Source: an uncultured Methanosarcinaceae archaeon (GTDB taxonomy: Archaea > Halobacteriota > Methanosarcinia > Methanosarcinales > Methanosarcinaceae). Taken from it: a stretch of DNA of 64,000 bases. Every line of letters begins with the position of its first letter. Positions within the stretch are counted from its first letter, which is position 1. The translations under genes were made by a program, and so were the position numbers. Below are positions 8,197 to 44,580 of this stretch, piece after piece. The notes beneath the pieces are model-generated. The model saw only the letters and a program-made list of their open reading frames with translations. It did no database searches and had not been told where the DNA came from. The stretch spans positions 32,001 to 96,000 of the forward strand of contig CAWHXP010000015.1 of assembly GCA_963833425.1 (NCBI GenBank), written 5' to 3'.

Positions 8197-8428
8197 ATTA
8201 TATTTCATATATATCGCCTTATAACATTTTTTTCGTTAAAATTTCACCTGAAAGTTCTTGTGTTCTACCTATGTTTTTGCTAACTGGATCATTCCATTAC
8301 ATATAAGAATATCCAAGTTTCTATCGATTACATGCCATTAAATGCAAAAAAATAGTAAGAAAAACACAGGCAAATTCTACCACATCCTTAAGATATCGAT
8401 TTTAAATTAAGAAAAGTATACCAAATAC

Positions 8429-9283
8429 GGTTCCGTTGCAAAAACTTCAAAAAAATATGTAAATCTATAAGTAATTAATAAAAATCAAAATATTTAAGGA
8501 AAATGTACTAACATTATAAAGCTATACCAAATAATTGATTAATGTATTTGACTTTATTAAGAGCAGAGTAGTTTAGATCGATTACTTGTCCTTTTTTGAT
8601 CATATTTATAGCTTCAATTCCTTTTAAAGTCTTATTAGCAGATTGAAAAGACTGAAATCCTAACATTGGATTAACAATTCTCTTTATAGATCTGTGATCT
8701 TGTTCTATAATATTATTCAAATAGTTGATTTGTCTAATTTCAACATTTTTAGACAATTTCTTTTCATTTTTCAGTTAATCTCTAGCAGGTGGATAAGCTG
8801 GATTCTTATCAACGGTTATTAATCTTGGAATTTGATTATGATTAAAACTTAAAGCTTTCTTAAAGAATCTCTTCGCTGCTTTTCTATTTAGTTTTGAACT
8901 TAACATGAAATCAATTGTATCTCCATTTGAGTCAACTGCTCGATAAAAATAGTCCCATTTACCTTTTACTTTGATATAGGTTTCATCAACTCTCCACGAA
9001 TAGTTTGTTAGCCTTAAATGTCTTCTTATCTTCTTTTCTATTTCAGGTGAATATTGATGTACCCATCTCATGATTGTTGTATGGTAGACTTTTACTCCCC
9101 TTTCTGCCATCATTTCCTTTAAATTTCTATAGCTTAATGGATATTTTAAGTACCATCTTACATTTAATAGGATAATTTCCCTTTCATAATGCTTCCATTT
9201 AAAGGAATTAGATAGCATGTTACTATCTTTGATTTTCTTTTTATTCTATTGTATCATTAAAAAGGATTTTTTGCAACGGAACC
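8429..9283 (-). mobile_element. IS6 family element, copy 1 (855 bp); transposase 9218-8514 interrupted by in-frame TAA at 8775-8777
   Basis: IRs ggttccgttgcaaaaa; WRVDETYIKVKG, ITVDK and NNIIEQDHR DDE motifs. Confidence 0.95.
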
Positions 9284-9294
9284 TATCATTTCTA

Positions 9295-9660
9295 GTCTAT
9301 GTAAATCAGTGCATGCCGATTGTTTGTCTGGCACGAGAGTAAACTAAAAACCAAGAGCAGAAGCTGTATTAGATCTCACAGATAAGTCTTCATCGGTAGT
9401 CGGTCTATGTAAGTCATTCCATGCACGTTGTTTATCTGGTACGTGAGAAAACGCAGAACCAAGAGCAGAAGTGCATTAAATTTCATCAAATTGTCTTCAT
9501 AAAGGATCAGGCCAACTAAATAGTTCCACACCTGGTGTTTATCTGGTACGTGAGCAATGCAGAACCAAAAGCCTAGGCTGCACCAAATCTCATAGTACTG
9601 CTTTCATCATTGGCCAGTCATGTAATCGTACCATGCCTGTTGTTTATCTGACATACAAGA
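9295..9660 (-). pseudogene. Relic of a HEAT/PBS-lyase-like 39-aa repeat protein (about 4 decayed units)
   Basis: tgtttatctggtacgtgag-like unit repeated; minus strand reads SALGSAFSHVPDKQRAWNDLHR. Confidence 0.65.
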
Positions 9661-9834
9661 ACATCATTGTTTCTCCAATCTGTCACAGATATTTTCCCGT
9701 TCAGAAACCAAGTTCAATGCCCGTTTGCAGCAAATCGGACCAGAGGCGCAGTGGACACCCCAAAAACTAGCATTAAAGCTTCATCATGCGCAAATACAAG
9801 CCTAATCCAGATTTTGTCGAAGATGTTCGCAAAA

Positions 9835-11118
9835 TCAAACGCGTTCAAGATCTCCACAACCTAGGGCATCGAGCGCCCGTTCAATAGAGCCAACTATAAA
9901 GTTCAAATCGTCTTTTGAAATGCAATAAGGCGGCAACAGATAGATTGTTTGCCCAATAGGACGCAACAACACACCCTGCGCCAGAAAATAGCGATAAAGC
10001 TTCGGCGCGACATCGGACAAATACCCTTGTCGAACATCGCATACATCAAGTGCCATAATCATGCCAATATGCCGCACATTTTCGACATCCTTGCGCGCCG
10101 CCAATCGCGGCAGCAATGCGGCTTGATGATCATGCAGCATCTTTATGCGCTCCATCACGTTATTTTTTTCCCATATATCTATCGAAGCGCAAGCTGCGGC
10201 GCAGGCCAGCGGATTTCCTGTAAAAGAAGTCGAATGGAAGAAAGTTTTGGCGCGGTCTGTGCTGTAAAATGTCTGATAAATATCTTCAGTCGCTAACGTC
10301 GCAGCCATAGGCAAACAACCGTTGGTAAGGCCTTTAGATAAACACACAATGTCCGGTTCTATATTCGCCTGTTCGCAGGCAAAGAGCGTCCCTGTGCGTC
10401 CCCATCCAGTCATGACCTCATCGGCAATGAAAATCACGCCGTAGCTTCGGCATAAAGCGTGCAGCGCGCGCAACGTTGCAGCACTGTAAATTCGCATTCC
10501 GGCAGCCCCAAGAACAAGTGGTTCGACAATCAATGCAGCGATATCGTTAGCTTGCGTTTTGAGCAGCTTCTCGAAGACCTCTACAGTCAAATGTTCGCGG
10601 CCAGTTTCAGGAAAAGGCAGACGATGCACATCGAACAGAAAATTTTCGTAGGGCGCGCTGAAAATGCCGCGCGAACCCACCGACATTGCACCGAACGTAT
10701 CGCCGTGGTACGCATTTTCAAGCGCTACAACGCCCCGCCGAGGTTTGTCTTTGTGCACCCAGTATCCCAACGCCATTTTCAAGGCAACTTCAACAGAAGT
10801 CGAACCGCTGTCGGAATAAAACACACGCGTCAAATTTGGCGGCGTGAGTCCCACCAATTTTTCCGCCAATCTTTCGGCGGGTTCATGTGTGAATCCGGCA
10901 AAGATAATCTGGTCGAGCTTTGTGGCCTGTTCCTGTACAGCCGCAACTATCTTTGGATGATTATGCCCGTGAATATTGACCCACCATGAAGAAATAGCGT
11001 CGATAATTCGACGTCCATCCTTGGCGTAAAGATAAGCACCCTCGGCGCGGTCAATAAAAACGGAATCCGGTAATAATGCATGTTGAGTAAAGGGATGCCA
11101 AATGGGGGAATGGATCAT
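9835..11118 (-). CDS. bioA: Adenosylmethionine-8-amino-7-oxononanoate transaminase
   Basis: IWHPFTQ, DAISSWWVNIHGH, DSGSTSVEVALKMA, YHGDTFGAMS, ADEVMTGWGRTG, LSKGLT. Confidence 0.97.
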   Translation of the reverse strand: MIHSPIWHPFTQHALLPDSVFIDRAEGAYLYAKDGRRIIDAISSWWVNIHGHNHPKIVAAVQEQATKLDQIIFAGFTHEPAERLAEKLVGLTPPNLTRVFYSDSGSTSVEVALKMALGYWVHKDKPRRGVVALENAYHGDTFGAMSVGSRGIFSAPYENFLFDVHRLPFPETGREHLTVEVFEKLLKTQANDIAALIVEPLVLGAAGMRIYSAATLRALHALCRSYGVIFIADEVMTGWGRTGTLFACEQANIEPDIVCLSKGLTNGCLPMAATLATEDIYQTFYSTDRAKTFFHSTSFTGNPLACAAACASIDIWEKNNVMERIKMLHDHQAALLPRLAARKDVENVRHIGMIMALDVCDVRQGYLSDVAPKLYRYFLAQGVLLRPIGQTIYLLPPYCISKDDLNFIVGSIERALDALGCGDLERV

Positions 11119-11735
11119 GCAAAATCCTCTTTCCGAAATCTCTGAGCAAAAACGCCCATCAATGAGGCACGGTCGATAACATCCAGATGTGGCACATGAC
11201 CGAGAACAAGCGCTCCGGAGAAATCTGCGATCGTGCGCATAGTATCGGGATTATCCTCACCGATAAAAATCAACCCGTGCAAAGTCATGTAGCGTTGGCG
11301 CAAGGCCTCAACGGATAACAACGTATGATTGATCGTTCCCAACCCGGTCCGCGCACATAAAATAACCGGTGCAGCCCACGCCTTGAAAACGTCGACCTGT
11401 AATTTCCTTCGAGTCACCGGAACCATAAGCCCGCCAGCGCCTTCGACAATCAAAGTTCCGTCCGCCTTGGGCAAAGAGAGCGCGCCTATTTCAGCGCCAT
11501 CCAATTCGGCCGCAAGATGCGGCGAGAGCGGACGCGATAGAATATAGCGTTCCTGCAGAAATCGATCGTTGGACAATCCAGTCAAACCCTGTACGCGCTG
11601 TGTATCCGTGCCGTCTTCGATGCCGGATTGTATAGGTTTCCAGTAGTGAGCATCCAGGGCAACGGTCAGCATAGCGGCAACAGTAGTTTTGCCGATACCA
11701 GTATCTGTGCCGCTGATAATAAAGATCTTAGTCAT
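11115..11735 (-). CDS. bioD: Dethiobiotin synthase
   Basis: GTDTGIGKT, WKPIQSG, SPHLAA, VEGAGG, LGTINHT; 4-nt overlap with bioA. Confidence 0.97.
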   Translation of the reverse strand: MTKIFIISGTDTGIGKTTVAAMLTVALDAHYWKPIQSGIEDGTDTQRVQGLTGLSNDRFLQERYILSRPLSPHLAAELDGAEIGALSLPKADGTLIVEGAGGLMVPVTRRKLQVDVFKAWAAPVILCARTGLGTINHTLLSVEALRQRYMTLHGLIFIGEDNPDTMRTIADFSGALVLGHVPHLDVIDRASLMGVFAQRFRKEDFA

Positions 11736-12862
11736 AGGCCGACACCAGATGGCAAAAGACTTTCCAAAGCCTGCGCAAAATTTTCGATATCTTGCGGCGT
11801 CAGCCCCACATTCAATGACAAGCGTAAACGAGCCGTACCTTCGGGAACGGCAGGGGGGCGTATTGCACGAATGTCGAATCCTTGCGCCTGTAGGTTCTTT
11901 GCCAGCTCGAAAGCTGCGGCATCTTCACCTATGATAATCGGTACAATCTGGCTTTTAACGGCAAGAGCTGAAATTCGTCGAGCCACAAGCGCTTTTAGCG
12001 CAGCAAGTCGTTTGCGCCGTTCAGGTTCATCGCGCACCAATTCTAACGCCCGTTTAACTAAAACAGCCTGCAAAGGCATTGGTGCAGTACTGTAGATAAA
12101 AGGTCGCGCTGCGTTGATGAGATAGTCGATGATATCCTCATTCGCACAAACAAGCGCGCCCGCTACTCCAAGGGCCTTACCGCAAGTATGCAGCGAAATC
12201 ATCCTGTCGTGTGAAAATCCTTCGGTTTCGCCGCGTCCAGTAGCACCGGAGACACCCGTCCCATGCGCTTCGTCAACGACCAGAATCGCATCATATTTTT
12301 CCGCAAGCATGAGAAGCTCGCGTACAGGTGCGATATCGCCGTCCATGCTATAAATAGATTCAACCAAAATCCATTTATTACATCCAGCTTCGACGGGCTT
12401 CTTAAGAGCATCTTCAAAAGCTTCTAGATTGTTATGAGAAATCTTGACCTTCATGCATTGCGCTGCATACAGCCCATCGCGCATACTTGCATGACACAAG
12501 GCATCGAAAATAGCAACATCGTGACGCGAGACTAGTGTTTTAATAAGTGCGTAATTTGCCTGAAATCCATTTGGAAAAAACAATGTGCGAGGGCATCCGT
12601 AATATGCGGCGGCAAAAAATTCAAGGTCTTCATGCGCTTGCCTGTTCCCACGTAAAAGCCTTGAGGCTGTCGCGCCGATTTCTATGCCGCCCTGCAACGC
12701 TTCAATTGCAGCCTGTCGTAAAGCTGGATGCTTAGAAAGGCCGAGATAATCATTAGACGAAAAATCAATTCCCTCAGGGAAGGAGAGCGAACGATAACGT
12801 CCCATGGCCTTCAGCCTGTCGAGATCAGGCGCGAAGTTTTTCACAACGACACCCCTCGTCAC
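11732..12862 (-). CDS. bioF: 8-amino-7-oxononanoate synthase
   Basis: FSSNDYLGL, HASMRDG, ESIYSMDGD, VDEAHGTG, TCGKALG, AIRPPAVP; exact start uncertain. Confidence 0.97.
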   Translation of the reverse strand: MTRGVVVKNFAPDLDRLKAMGRYRSLSFPEGIDFSSNDYLGLSKHPALRQAAIEALQGGIEIGATASRLLRGNRQAHEDLEFFAAAYYGCPRTLFFPNGFQANYALIKTLVSRHDVAIFDALCHASMRDGLYAAQCMKVKISHNNLEAFEDALKKPVEAGCNKWILVESIYSMDGDIAPVRELLMLAEKYDAILVVDEAHGTGVSGATGRGETEGFSHDRMISLHTCGKALGVAGALVCANEDIIDYLINAARPFIYSTAPMPLQAVLVKRALELVRDEPERRKRLAALKALVARRISALAVKSQIVPIIIGEDAAAFELAKNLQAQGFDIRAIRPPAVPEGTARLRLSLNVGLTPQDIENFAQALESLLPSGVGL

Positions 12863-13154
12863 AATTTTTATCCATCTCAGAAGCCTTCAATCTCAGATAC
12901 GCCATTAAACAAAGATCTTCATTGGTACCGGGATTAGGCATGGTCAGTAGCTTGTCGCCGGTAAAAATAGAATTGGCTCCCTTGATCAGAAACTCCACAG
13001 CTGTTAGGGTCTTTCTTAAACCTGCATTTCCATATACAAGTGTGATACGACCCTTTGGCAGGACATCATCAGTGATGTCATCAAAACCAGTAATACCAAT
13101 TGGATATTTTTCCAGATGTTTTTCTTTTAAAGTTGGGCTCTTTTGTTTAGTCAT
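12825..13154 (-). pseudogene. Chimeric ORF: KaiC-like ATPase N-terminus fused in frame to the BioB C-terminal tail
   Basis: PIGITGFDDIT...PKGRITLVYGNAGLRKT...EFLIKGA (KaiC) runs into GANSIFTGDKLLTMPNP (BioB) at 12975-12980. Confidence 0.85.
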
Positions 13155-13299
13155 CAAATACACCTTTTTAAATCTAGTAAGAAGCAGTAGTTTAAATAAG
13201 TATAAATTATCCAATTTATTTTGATCTCTTTAGCCCTTATTTTAGATCTTAATTAATATATTTGTTCTAATATTTTAAAAATATATATTTTTTGAACTG

Positions 13300-13870
13300 A
13301 TTATCGGAATACTCAATCAAGTCAATCCTTAACAGAAGCGACAATCAAAAGCGTTAATCTGTCCTTGACTCAGTAGTGAGTACCAATAACACTACAGATA
13401 AATCGATCTATTAGAGCTGTAAGAAGCCAGGATAAGAAAGCAGTAACATCGGATCAATGTCAAATATGACCAAATAGACATCAAAAATAACAATGAACTC
13501 CAACAGGCCAAAATAGACGATCTGAAAAATCAGATCCAAGCACTCTACTGCCATATAACATTAAGGACGAGAGATAGAAAAGCTAAATAAGAATATGCAC
13601 AAACCGCGTATTCAAAGTTCAATCCAGAAAAATAGCAGGCTAAATATTAAGCCGCTTGCGGATAATGTAGAAAAAAGTAATGTCAAGAGGATAGTATTTA
13701 GTGCCCTTCCCAGCTTTGATATATGTATAAGCATGTATAAAATCTAGATAATCGTTAATATAATCTGGAGTAAATTCCTTTAATTCTTTGTCTCCACAAC
13801 ATTCTATGAATGGTATAAGAGTGGTTCCCAAAGTTGCGATTGTTACTTCTATCAGTCCATCTCTCGGCAC
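13300..13870. pseudogene. Fragments of decayed hypothetical genes (coiled-coil remnant on +, 76-aa fragment on -)
   Basis: Broken + frames such as NELQQAKIDDLKNQIQALY and IEKLNKNMHK; ORF 13640-13870 on -. Confidence 0.35.
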
Positions 13871-39931: not shown

Positions 39932-40040
39932 CCATGAACAATAAGGTTCTGCGTAGCGGGGGTCAGATTGATATTCTGTACGCGCTGAAGTTAGTTTGAC
40001 GGTTAACCACACGAACTACACAGAACCGTATTGTTCCACG
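39932..40040. repeat. Long imperfect inverted repeat / possible mini-MITE
   Basis: gaacaataaggttctgcgtag ... ctacacagaaccgtattgttc (21 bp, 2 mismatches). Confidence 0.7.
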
Positions 40041-40349
40041 GAAAATGGGGGATCTATATAGACAAAGGTTAATATATATGAGAAAATTTTACCAAAAATA
40101 GTTATGGTTTTAAAAATTTGCTTTTGTATAATAAGTGTAAACCTTACAGTTAAGAAAGTTAATAGATCTAAACATCAGGAAAATGGTATACATAGGTAAG
40201 AATTCTAACATCAAATTGAAGAAATAATATAACAGACAGAAACTAAGCCTCTGGCAATCGGCACTCAATTCTTCCAAGAGAAGAAAAGATTGAAGAGATT
40301 GCATACTATAGATTTGGTTTTGAATTTTTAGTCAATGTGAGGTAACTTT

Positions 40350-41390
<1,041 letters not shown>

Positions 41391-41958
41391 TCGTAGCATA
41401 AACGTCTTCAAGGCTTGAAGATCTTCAAAAAATTAAAAGTAAAATAAACTGACCCAAAAGTTCAATTATTCCCCCACAAGCCTTTTAAATTTTTATTGTA
41501 ACTTTTGAGCTCTTCTCTGCCCGCCTTTCAGCAGTAATTATCCCTAAGCTTACTAATTCATGGAGAGCCCTAATGAAATTGCTCATACTTGAGTTTGTAT
41601 TCCAAGTGCGAATTGATTTTAAAGAGAAATCAGTTAAAACTTGCTGATAGAAGAAGGGGGGATTCGATCAAAATGATTAACTTACGTGAAATTAGTTTGA
41701 AGATTGAATTACTGTATCACACAATTTCCCCGGTCAAATAGTAAAAAATGTATCCTATACTTTGGTATCCTGCGACAGACTAGCTCCATAATGATTGAGA
41801 TTTTTAGATACTGAGTATTAAGTTTTATTGAAGAATTCATTCTTTCTGCAAATTCAGCAGTTCAATCCAAAAAAATACAAAAATAGTTATATTTTGAACC
41901 AGATTCGAGATCGTATCATCTAAAATCTGGTTATACTTGTCAGGTCAATATTCCAAAG

Positions 41959-42757
41959 TTAGGTACTCCAGATTCCCTGCAAGAGCTGCTCCATTACTTT
42001 GTCGAGGGTAAATGTTGCAGATTTCTGGCGAGGAGGAAATTCCTTGAAGGTTGCCAAAAAATCGCCTAGAATGCTCTGTGCTGGCACCATCATGAAAGCG
42101 TGATCGATTAACCAGTCGTAATAGGTATTAGAGGTCTGATCTGCTCGTTCATAGGGATCGGTGCGTAGGTTAAATATTTTTGGTACGCGTAGATGGACAA
42201 AAGGTTCAGCCCAAACCAGTAGCGTACCTCTGGCGCGCTGCTCCATAAAGACGAGCTTCCAGTTATCATACCGTACAGCTACAAGATCTCCATCATCGGA
42301 AAAGTAAAAAAACTCGATACGTGGGGATTTATTCTCTTTCCCAATTAGATATGGTAGCAGGTTATAGCCATCAAGATGCACCTTGAAATTCTTGTCTCCT
42401 GCTTTGTAACCTTTTTTAAGTTTTTCCTTAATATCCGGTTTTCCTGCAGCTGCAAGCAAAGTAGGTAGCCAGTCAAGTAAACTCACCATCTCGTTAGAAA
42501 TCGTACCTGCCGGAATCTTCCCTGGCCAGCGCACTACCTCAGGAATTCGGAAAGCTCCTTCCCAACATGAATTCTTTTCGTTGCGGAATGGGGGTCATAC
42601 CTCCATCAGGCCAGGAGTTCATGTGTGGCCCATTATCTGTGCTGTAGACTACGATGGTGTCTTTTGCAATGCCAAGTTCGTCTAGTAAATTAAGTAACAT
42701 ACCTATCTGTTGATCGTGCTCAATCATAGCATCATGGTATTCCGACTGCCAGCGCCC
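41959..42757 (-). pseudogene. Arylsulfatase 3' half, frameshifted
   Basis: YSTDNGP, RWPGKIPAG, DWLPTL, HLDGYN, FNLRTDPYE. Confidence 0.9.
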
Positions 42758-43252
42758 ACAGCAGCAGGCGGGCTTCCACATTTACGGGGGAAGCGCCCGC
42801 TATCCATAAAGGCGTCGTGGCGATCACCCAGAGAAGCGTCCGGAAGTAGTGGTCTCGGAACACAGCATTTGTTGAATTTACGAGCGTCCATACAGTGCGC
42901 TCCAGTTGGATCAGTAGCAAGGGAATGACGAAGGCCCAGCCGGAGGTGGTGAAGGCCATGGTCACCGAAGCGTTCATGAACAGGCTCAGCAGCATCACCC
43001 CCAGAACCAACCAGCGGGTCCGAGATTGATCGGCTCGGATCATGGTAGCCGACCAGCTTGTAGTAAGCCATACCGTGAATATAGCCAACATCATCACCAG
43101 CGTCTAAGCCGCACCATGCCATGAGAGGTGAGTCAATAGATAAAGTGTGAGAGCTGCGATACTGCGAACACGAACACGAGGTCGAAGAACAGCTCCAATG
43201 GATTGACCTCATATTTTTGTTCAGGGATGATGTGAATGGGATGAGCAGTCAT
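42739..43252 (-). pseudogene. LtrA (low temperature requirement A) family 5' part
   Basis: PLELFFDLVFVFAVSQLSH signature, hydrophobic helices, ends at LLLWALAVGI. Confidence 0.85.
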
Positions 43253-43454
43253 ATATCTTCACTTGCTTAGTGCAAAAATCATTTTACAAATCATTAGCTG
43301 TTTCCCGGTACGTCTACTTGTCCAAAACCACTCGAATCGGTACTCCAGTTAGGCAACTAGCAGCGTGAACGACTCGGCATATCTGGGCGATTCAAAGGGG
43401 CTGGCATCCACAGGATCGGAAAGCACATCGCTAATCCGCCCGGAGACCAGTTTA

Positions 43455-44580
43455 TGCTTGGAGTAGAAGAAGGGGACAACCCGAAAATAGAGCATTCTAA
43501 GGACGCATAATCAGGCTGACATCGAATGCGATATGTGAAAGCGATATTCACATGTACGAGGGAAGAACTCCCATAAATCCCGGAAGGATTTTAGGCCATG
43601 AGCCCCTAGGAGTAGTTGAAAAAACAGACGACGGGATTGAATCGATAAATGAAGGCGATAGAGTCGTTATGACCTTTAATGTCGCCTGTGGTTATTGCTA
43701 TAACTGCATGAGAGGGGTATAACTATGCATGTTTGAACGGTGGCAATTTGGGTTATGTTGGGCCTTTTGCTGGCGCTCAGGCAGAATACATCCGCATTCC
43801 ATTTGCGGATTTTAATTGCATAAAGCTTCCTGGGTCTCCAGGAGATAAATGGGAAAATGATTTTGTATTGCTTGCAGATATCTTTCCAACAGGATTTCAT
43901 GCGACTGAGCTGGCCATGGTGAAGCCTGGAATGAATGTTGCCATTTTCGGTGCCGGTCCAGTCGGTCTGCTTTCGGCCTACAGCGCAATTTTGAAGGGCG
44001 CAAACCAGGTATATGTGGTGGATTATATCCCTGAACGTCTTAAGAAAGCCAAGCAGATTGGCGCTATTCCAATTGATTTCACAAGGGGAGATCCCGTAGA
44101 TCAAATCATGGCTATAAAGGCAAAAAATCCAGCAAATCTTCTAGGTAAGGAGAAGATGTCAGGCGTCATGTGCGGAATAGATGCAGTGGGCTATCAGGCG
44201 AGGGATAGAAAGAACCCTAAAATTGAGAATCCAACGCAGGTTCTAGAAGACCTTGCGAGGCTTGTCAATCCAACAGGCCATCTTGGAATGATAGGAGTAT
44301 ATGAGGCGGAGGATCCCGAGGCGCCAACAGAGGATAGAAAGCAGGGTAGGTTCACGATACCCTGGGGACTATATGGGGCAAAGGCCTCACTATTGGAACT
44401 GGCGCAACCTCAGTCAAGAAGATTGCCTTAAAGCTTCTGGACCTTATAATTGATGAAAAGGCTAAGCCTAGCTTTATTGTGAGCCATAGAATACCTATTG
44501 AGGAGACGCCAGATGCTTACAAGAAGTTCGCTGAAAGATATGATGGGTATACGAAGGTGGTAATAAAGTTCGGGGAATAA
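43455..44580 (+). pseudogene. Zn-dependent alcohol / glutathione-independent formaldehyde dehydrogenase
   Basis: ICESDIHMYEGR, LGHEPLG, CGYCYNC, LADIFPTG, GAGPVG, DAVG; several frameshifts. Confidence 0.9.

Follow-up and report, generated by a model that had tools for sequence, protein, structure and literature searches.

The stretch of DNA analysed here (the window, 64,000 nucleotides (nt) in length) originates from an uncultured archaeon of the family Methanosarcinaceae, and corresponds to C15:32001-96000 of a source genome (G000) of 4.07 Mb in 21 contigs, rated 80% complete. It carries a cassette of three biotin biosynthesis genes:

11732-12862, minus strand: bioF, 8-amino-7-oxononanoate synthase, 376 amino acids (aa), assigned by profile match, tree and residues
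11115-11735, minus strand: bioD, dethiobiotin synthetase, 206 aa, with a P-loop at residues 9-17, K33 and E98
9835-11118, minus strand: bioA, 7,8-diaminononanoate transaminase, 427 aa, with D233 and K262 (pyridoxal phosphate (PLP) lysine motif)

All three open reading frames (ORFs) are intact, with a 4-nt overlap at each joint (bioF/bioD and bioD/bioA). An alternative GTG start of bioF at 12844, giving a protein of 370 aa, agrees with the bacterial homologs. BioA scored above two NCBIfam equivalog cut-offs (552 against 405 and 583 against 494 bits), and BioD, whose P-loop is present, above that of TIGR00347 (118.6 against 83.3 bits). For BioF, the bioF family was by far the best match (the runner-up family reached 246 bits), and its orthology is indicated by its position between bioB and bioD, by 80% aa identity to the BioF of a complete bacterial operon (L243, see below) and by the tree. 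Residues K229, H124, D197 and H200 are present; on the model of E. coli BioF we take K229 to be the PLP lysine and assume the corresponding roles for the other three. The GC content of the cassette (0.496) and its observed/expected CpG ratio (1.30, a value matched by only 8 of 4017 3-kb windows of the genome) stand against genome means of 0.358 and 0.71. The host is archaeal: a gene for SepCysS adjoins the cassette region, and radical S-adenosylmethionine protein matches of PylB size occur across the genus. These data bear out an earlier, sequence-only reading of the window, which had described intact, overlapping bioF, bioD and bioA ORFs of about 50% GC, rich in CpG, in AT-rich surroundings, preceded by a truncated bioB and accompanied by decayed neighbours. 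The bioB remnant is a tail of 51 codons (TIGR00433 positions 250-305), and the decayed neighbours are a split IS6 transposase, a HEAT-repeat pseudogene and a truncated kaiC.

The same gene order and overlaps characterise the alphaproteobacterial bioBFDA(Z) operon. The order B-F-D-A, correctly ascribed to Alphaproteobacteria by the sequence-only reading, was present in 47 of the 79 bacterial loci fetched via BioA, and a FabH-like gene followed bioA in 33. The archaeal locus differs from bioBFDAZ in that the 51-codon tail stands in place of a full-length bioB, bioZ is missing, and both the host and the upstream region are archaeal. The named relatives of BioF belong to the Alphaproteobacteria, including Xanthobacteraceae and Asticcacaulis (68-76%; closer matches reach 78-84%), and BioA shares 53-60% aa identity with named genomes. 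The nearest whole operon, L243, has the structure bioB-F-D-A-ORF5 and is 73% identical at the nt level over 3152 bp, with the match starting at the bioB tail. The L243 operon has a GC content of 53-58% inside flanks of 59-68%, and this gap suggests that operons of this lineage may be mobile among bacteria too. In a BioF tree of 67 sequences (a chosen subset of 170 locus-derived sequences and 15 proteins), four sequences of the archaeal clade nest among proteobacteria, far from 10 BioF of other Methanosarcinales families, and archaeal monophyly was rejected (approximately unbiased test, p-AU 0.025). The BioA tree, which contains no archaeal BioA for comparison, groups the clade in the same way. 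Vertical descent from an archaeal ancestor, named by the sequence-only reading as a finding that would overturn its claim, is thus rejected for BioF by the topology test and by the nt identity to a bacterial operon. Transfer from a proteobacterial operon of the alpha type is supported.

Four of 21 listed public runs were examined for coverage of the cassette. In DNA run X1, a single 3547-nt contig (approximately 95% identity, depth 8.9) spans 9600-13093 and hence both junctions, and the next contig (13067-14303, depth 8.1) reaches sepCysS; a contig of run X2 (a peat metagenome) also crosses the kaiC junction, by 72 nt. Among 59 genomes of the genus, presumably Methanosarcina, six carry the cassette (G000, G065, G064, G019, G067 and G055), and BioF of the other five carriers is 90-93% identical at the aa level. 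G065 has the same kaiC junction, with 88% nt identity across 9649-13247. In G019, G067, G064 and G055 the cassette adjoins thi4 and the bioB remnant is about 30 codons longer, so that two genomic settings exist. The same type of BioF (E < 1e-100) occurred in none of the other genomes among 400 drawn phylum-wide, and bioA exceeded the cut-off in 5 of 177 genomes of the family, all five of them carriers. Loci L246 (100% identical to G019) and L042 (91% BioA match) were not taken as independent of the genus genomes. An assembly chimera, the other refutation offered by the sequence-only reading, is rejected, considering the junction-spanning contigs from other runs, the six genomes and the two settings. 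The concern was fair at the outset, since high-GC blocks with bacterial-looking ORFs, possibly mis-joins or contamination, occur at some contig ends of G000 (C3:616000-624181, C12:1-11500 and C15:184000-198816, the last with tad-pilus-like ORFs).

The sequence-only reading also held bioF, bioD and bioA to be uncommon in archaea. In fact, bioF-bioD is not rare across the Methanosarcinales: bioD exceeded the cut-off in 29 of 251 genomes of the order, mostly of other families and of a distant type. Loci L155-L180, from other Methanosarcinales families, contain adjacent bioF-bioD of this distant type, and genus g4 has bioD in 21 of its 49 genomes. These genes conflict with the table in PMC6138646, in which bioF, bioA or bioD appear in 0 of 29 Methanosarcinales genomes and the order is described as BioY-dependent importers.

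The rpoB genes of G064, G019, G055 and G067 are 94% identical to that of G000, while none of the 45 other genomes with a match exceeds 86% (nine, including G065, had none), and G065 shares 91-96% identity with G000 on other host genes. The six carriers therefore represent one subclade, which places the transfer in its ancestor. Synonymous distances from G000 lie between 0.29 and 0.44 in the bio genes, compared with 0.28-0.29 in rpoB, which indicates that the cassette diverged along with its hosts. A strain-recent transfer is rejected, the cassette being older than the radiation of the six species-level genomes. The claim of a recent inter-domain transfer is thus supported as regards the crossing of domains (the 73% identical bacterial operon and the BioF and BioA trees) and unsupported as regards its recency.

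Intact bioF, bioD and bioA are retained by G000, G065 and G064, and the apparent frameshifts of G055 fall at NN gaps. The ratio of non-synonymous to synonymous divergence (dN/dS) was 0.10-0.22 in pairs with G000 and 0.10-0.26 in all pairs except one (bioD of G067 and G019, 0.64, both copies broken). Changes private to G000 comprise 69 synonymous and 15 non-synonymous ones (p 4e-28 against neutrality), and the dN/dS of this branch (omega approximately 0.07, bioF included) reflects the second strongest constraint of the six. The bioB tail, with omega of approximately 0.58, is under relaxed selection and serves as a local control. Private changes of the cassette are dominated by GC>AT (276, against 84 AT>GC), i.e. 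the genes are drifting towards AT. A sister relationship of the G000 and G065 bio genes was rejected (p-AU 0.016) despite their common kaiC junction; the conflict may be due to recombination within the clade or to the presence of two ancestral copies. That the cassette was transferred and has been maintained by selection is, in our judgement, close to certain.

A second, intact bioB of 319 aa (37% GC) lies elsewhere in G000, at C5:238411-239370. Its product scores 390 bits on TIGR00433 (cut-off 225), its named relatives are Bacillota (64-73%), and its private changes are balanced between GC>AT and AT>GC (41 against 39). Residues C50, S104, C136, S138, H159 and C196 correspond, with an offset of 2, to those of the Type II enzyme 8VCW. 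It shares with the Type II biotin synthases of Blautia obeum and Veillonella the Cys in place of Ser43, the Ser in place of Cys97 (E. coli numbering) and the active-site Ser and His, as given in PMC10813225; it is assigned to Type II by residues. The known Type II enzymes have a 4Fe-5S auxiliary cluster. According to the same source, Type II BioB is typical of obligate anaerobes, and by motifs read against it the BioB of the donor operon is of Type I. In this archaeon a Bacillota-derived gene has taken the place of the operon's own bioB. A full bioB exceeded the cut-off in 7 of the 59 genomes of the genus, namely in five of the six carriers (in the sixth it is split at an NN gap) and in 2 of 53 others. 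Judged from sequence, the late pathway F-A-D-B is complete in the carriers and is predicted to stem from two donors, bioB from the second, Bacillota-like one. The sequence-only reading had foreseen dethiobiotin as the product and the need for a BioB encoded elsewhere; with the C5 gene in place, the product is likely to be biotin itself.

Broken second copies of bioB were observed at G000:C14:15700-16620 (the locus of the intact bioB of G065) and G064:C4:702066-702968, and the intact bioB of G000 differs from that of G064 by a synonymous distance of 0.10, where rpoB predicts 0.28; this hints that bioB was duplicated or exchanged between members of the clade. In G051 and G068 (L022, L023), which lack bioF, bioD and bioA, the genes for the biotin transporter BioY and its energy-coupling factor (ECF) module are directly preceded by a different bioB, and this bioB-bioY-ECF arrangement is, by its gene content, a likely dethiobiotin-salvage operon.

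In four carriers (G000, G064, G019 and G067), birA, pycA and pycB are all intact (a stop in G064 pycB is upstream of the probable start), while G065 gave no match. BioY is present in 55 of the 59 genomes. The genome search for bioB and bioY proposed by the sequence-only reading found the former intact in G000 and the latter decayed: bioY contains a stop and frameshifts, ecfA is full of stops, and neither the second ATPase nor ecfT gave a match of its own in that stretch.

The features surrounding the cassette are as follows:

12825-12981, minus strand: bioB', C-terminal remnant of the donor Type I BioB (TIGR00433 positions 250-305)
12975-12981, minus strand: 7-nt microhomology at the kaiC/bioB crossover, seen on aligning the kaiC paralog, G055 and L243
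12982-13154, minus strand: 5' part of the host gene kaiC, 58 codons, which gives the leader ORF its start codon (KaiC profile match)
13155-13225, minus strand: upstream sequence, rich in AT, containing TATA-like tracts and, ahead of the ATG, AGGTG (from sequence only), a putative captured host promoter and ribosome site
9680-9820, no strand: 140-nt piece shared only with G065 (comparison of carriers)
9284-9680, minus strand: decayed host HEAT-repeat gene with 108-nt repeats, flanking the operon on its 3' side (repeats, comparison)
8429-9283, minus strand: IS6 element bounded by perfect 16-nt terminal inverted repeats; its transposase is interrupted by a stop (profile match, repeats)

The kaiC part resembles a host paralog on C5 (69% aa identity). 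It is joined in frame to the last 51 codons of bioB, forming an open leader ORF of 109 aa, whose stop lies 20 nt inside bioF, as in the donor operon. In all eight clade loci examined, the ORF running through the bioB remnant ends over a bioF start; neither the kaiC fusion nor the 162-nt deletion seen in L260 disrupts the leader frame, and the bioB tail has accumulated 64 or more substitutions without acquiring a stop (chance approximately 0.08). This pattern, recognised post hoc, suggests selection for translational coupling. A scan for sigma-70 promoters, a model ill-suited to archaea, gave hits at chance level. Concerning the opposite side, the 9680-9820 piece was rejected as a remnant of the fifth gene of the donor, having no tblastx match in the bacterial loci. 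The IS6 element was likewise rejected as a carrier of the cassette or part of a composite transposon, being one self-contained insertion sequence on one side only; none of the matches in the five other carriers contains it, and no cassette-end repeats were found within 8300-13500. Close relatives of this element reach a depth above 1000 in the runs examined, which indicates that the family is present there in high copy number. A further patch of raised GC content (45-51%) at 40000-44500 of the window contains fragmented sulfatase-like and alcohol dehydrogenase-like ORFs (labelled by eye), and is possibly an older, decaying transfer.

The fifth gene of the donor operon, ORF5 (L243:8982-9671, 229 aa, unannotated), overlaps the end of bioA in operons of this type, and replaces bioZ in the nearest sub-lineage (L243, L244, L251, L252, L258, L261-L263 and L064). 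It has 504 homologs, the named ones being alphaproteobacterial or from unclassified Proteobacteria; no Pfam, NCBIfam or PDB sequence match passed, and Foldseek alone gave none with E < 0.001. The closest fold to its structural model (predicted local distance difference test score 91.7) is an aldehyde-deformylating oxygenase-like protein (Z 17.0, root-mean-square deviation 2.8, 190 aligned residues; the next fold has Z 13.8). Residues E41, E68, H71, E134, E164 and H167, the six predicted diiron ligands of this ferritin-like fold, show little or no variation among 81 homologs. PMC12704756 lists E26, E53, H56, E125, E155 and H158 as ligands of BioE from Elizabethkingia, an enzyme which requires oxygen and whose closest fold is also aldehyde-deformylating oxygenase. 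The likeness, drawn from published ligands and fold and not from sequence, thus extends to ligand spacing, closest fold and location beside bio genes, and on the strength of the model ORF5 is likely to be a pimeloyl source of the BioE type. An oxygen-dependent enzyme would be useless to a methanogen, and no trace of ORF5 was detected in G000 or at the carrier loci.

We consider it probable, from the gene content, that the cassette and the separately acquired bioB of the anaerobe type let the subclade make biotin for pyruvate carboxylase from a pimeloyl thioester obtained by pimelate salvage. According to this model, the captured kaiC promoter and the chimeric leader ORF would drive and couple translation of bioF-D-A; BioF, BioA and BioD would convert pimeloyl-CoA (coenzyme A) to dethiobiotin; the Type II BioB would insert sulfur, and BirA would load PycB. 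The pieces lost from the operon would be the two suited to aerobes, namely the Type I bioB and the BioE-like oxygenase. The weakest step is the first, in which environmental pimelate would most probably be converted to pimeloyl-CoA by a native AMP-forming acyl-CoA ligase (candidate C8:165093-166730, a fatty acid-CoA ligase family protein) or by a ligase adjoining an acyl carrier protein (candidate C11:71176-72878).

A number of observations weigh against this model. BioF itself scores below the TIGR00858 equivalog cut-off (350 against 426.45 bits), and archaeal monophyly of BioD is not rejected when its tree is taken by itself (p-AU 0.55). PMC10813225 reports that Type II BioBs predicted in archaea were non-functional in E. 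coli. The cassette is broken in two carriers: G019 has stops or frameshifts in bioF, bioD and bioA, and G067 a stop at bioD codon 40, although this latter lesion is at strain level, because the frame of L245, which shares 97.8% identity with G067, runs through that codon without interruption. G019 has a frameshifted bioY and a decayed ecfA as well, yet keeps bioB, birA and pyc; another vitamer supply must therefore exist, and loss of bioY-ECF is no proof of synthesis. Conversely, bioY-ECF is intact in G064 and G065. As to transcription, contigs from RNA libraries of runs X6 and X9 cover all three genes at depths of mostly 11-100 (one bin is empty in X9), with a depth of 0-4 over the non-coding 13193-13574, where the DNA run of the same study is flat; they come, however, from a single study and may include DNA, and the next non-coding bin has a depth of 18-37. 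We take them as a hint of cassette transcription.

A further objection concerns the pimeloyl source. In the carriers' genomes (73-92% complete), BioW was found in none of the six, BioC exceeded the cut-off in none of five, and BioZ and ORF5 gave no match in G000; in five genomes FabB/F yielded only matches of thiolase size, and acyl-CoA dehydrogenase and family III CoA transferase none. No known pimeloyl-making gene was therefore identified, BioH, BioG, BioI, BioK and BioU not having been searched for, and the need for a pimeloyl source, pointed out by the sequence-only reading, still stands. PF08541 matches in four of the five genomes were single frames of 362-394 aa adjoining thiolase-size matches, read as native hydroxymethylglutaryl-CoA synthase; that the G000 assembly lacks even these shows its incompleteness.

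The same evidence bears on the first alternative, i.e. that the clade builds its own pimeloyl thioester by an undescribed oxygen-independent route (e.g. CoA-linked elongation by native thiolase-type enzymes) and is a true prototroph. Constraint on BioF equals that on BioA and BioD, which means that BioF must receive its substrate from somewhere; every upstream family searched came up empty, and G000 has lost bioY-ECF. Moreover, PMC6138646 treats the origin of the pimeloyl moiety in archaea as an open question and considers reversed beta-oxidation. Nevertheless, the acyl-CoA dehydrogenase family has no match in the five genomes, no clade-specific candidate enzyme emerged, and native acyl-CoA ligases offer a simpler salvage, for which reasons we judge this route rather unlikely. 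The corresponding view of the subclade as prototrophic, combining the oxygen-independent half of the operon, the Type II BioB and an undescribed archaeal pimeloyl-CoA route without BioC/H, BioW, BioI, BioZ or BioE, is likewise judged rather unlikely.

A second alternative regards the cassette as a conditional means of salvaging precursors from neighbours (8-amino-7-oxononanoate, 7,8-diaminononanoate or pimelate), lost wherever dethiobiotin or biotin is available, with bioB-only salvage as a stable state. It would explain why bioB is intact in the two carriers with broken cassettes and why G051 and G068 have bioB beside bioY without bioF, bioD and bioA; bioB-only use of dethiobiotin is documented in bacteria (PMC9561691). 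The strong constraint on the G000 branch, which includes bioF, and the strain-level nature of the G067 lesion make it quite improbable. That the genes are passengers without function in the archaeon, or a chimera, can hardly be credited, for, while the bacterial-looking blocks include the end of this very contig, junction-spanning contigs, six carriers in two settings, low dN/dS and the AT drift all oppose it.

Methanosarcina genomes carry many bacterial genes. Against this general background of transfer, the case described here is distinguished by the rebuilding of an entire cofactor pathway from the genes of two donors and by the loss of the uptake system in one member. The bioWFADB cluster of Methanococcales and bioDABF of Nitrososphaera, as presented in PMC6138646, encode the same late F-A-D-B pathway, and the pimeloyl source of Nitrososphaera is open as well; in the Methanosarcinaceae subclade, by contrast, two donors and two loci are involved and BioW was not found in any carrier. 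We found no published description of the cassette in Methanosarcina in a search outside which most subscription literature lay. The parts were known already; their combination was not found in print.

To conclude, a lineage described as biotin-auxotrophic carries a late biotin pathway rebuilt across domains, in which the aerobe-suited parts have been replaced or dropped. On the donor side, BioE-type initiation probably extends to proteobacterial operons. Genomes with intact, partly broken and bioB-only sets of genes coexist and provide a natural series, and selection on bioF without a known upstream enzyme makes the question of the archaeal pimeloyl source testable in the genetically tractable Methanosarcina.

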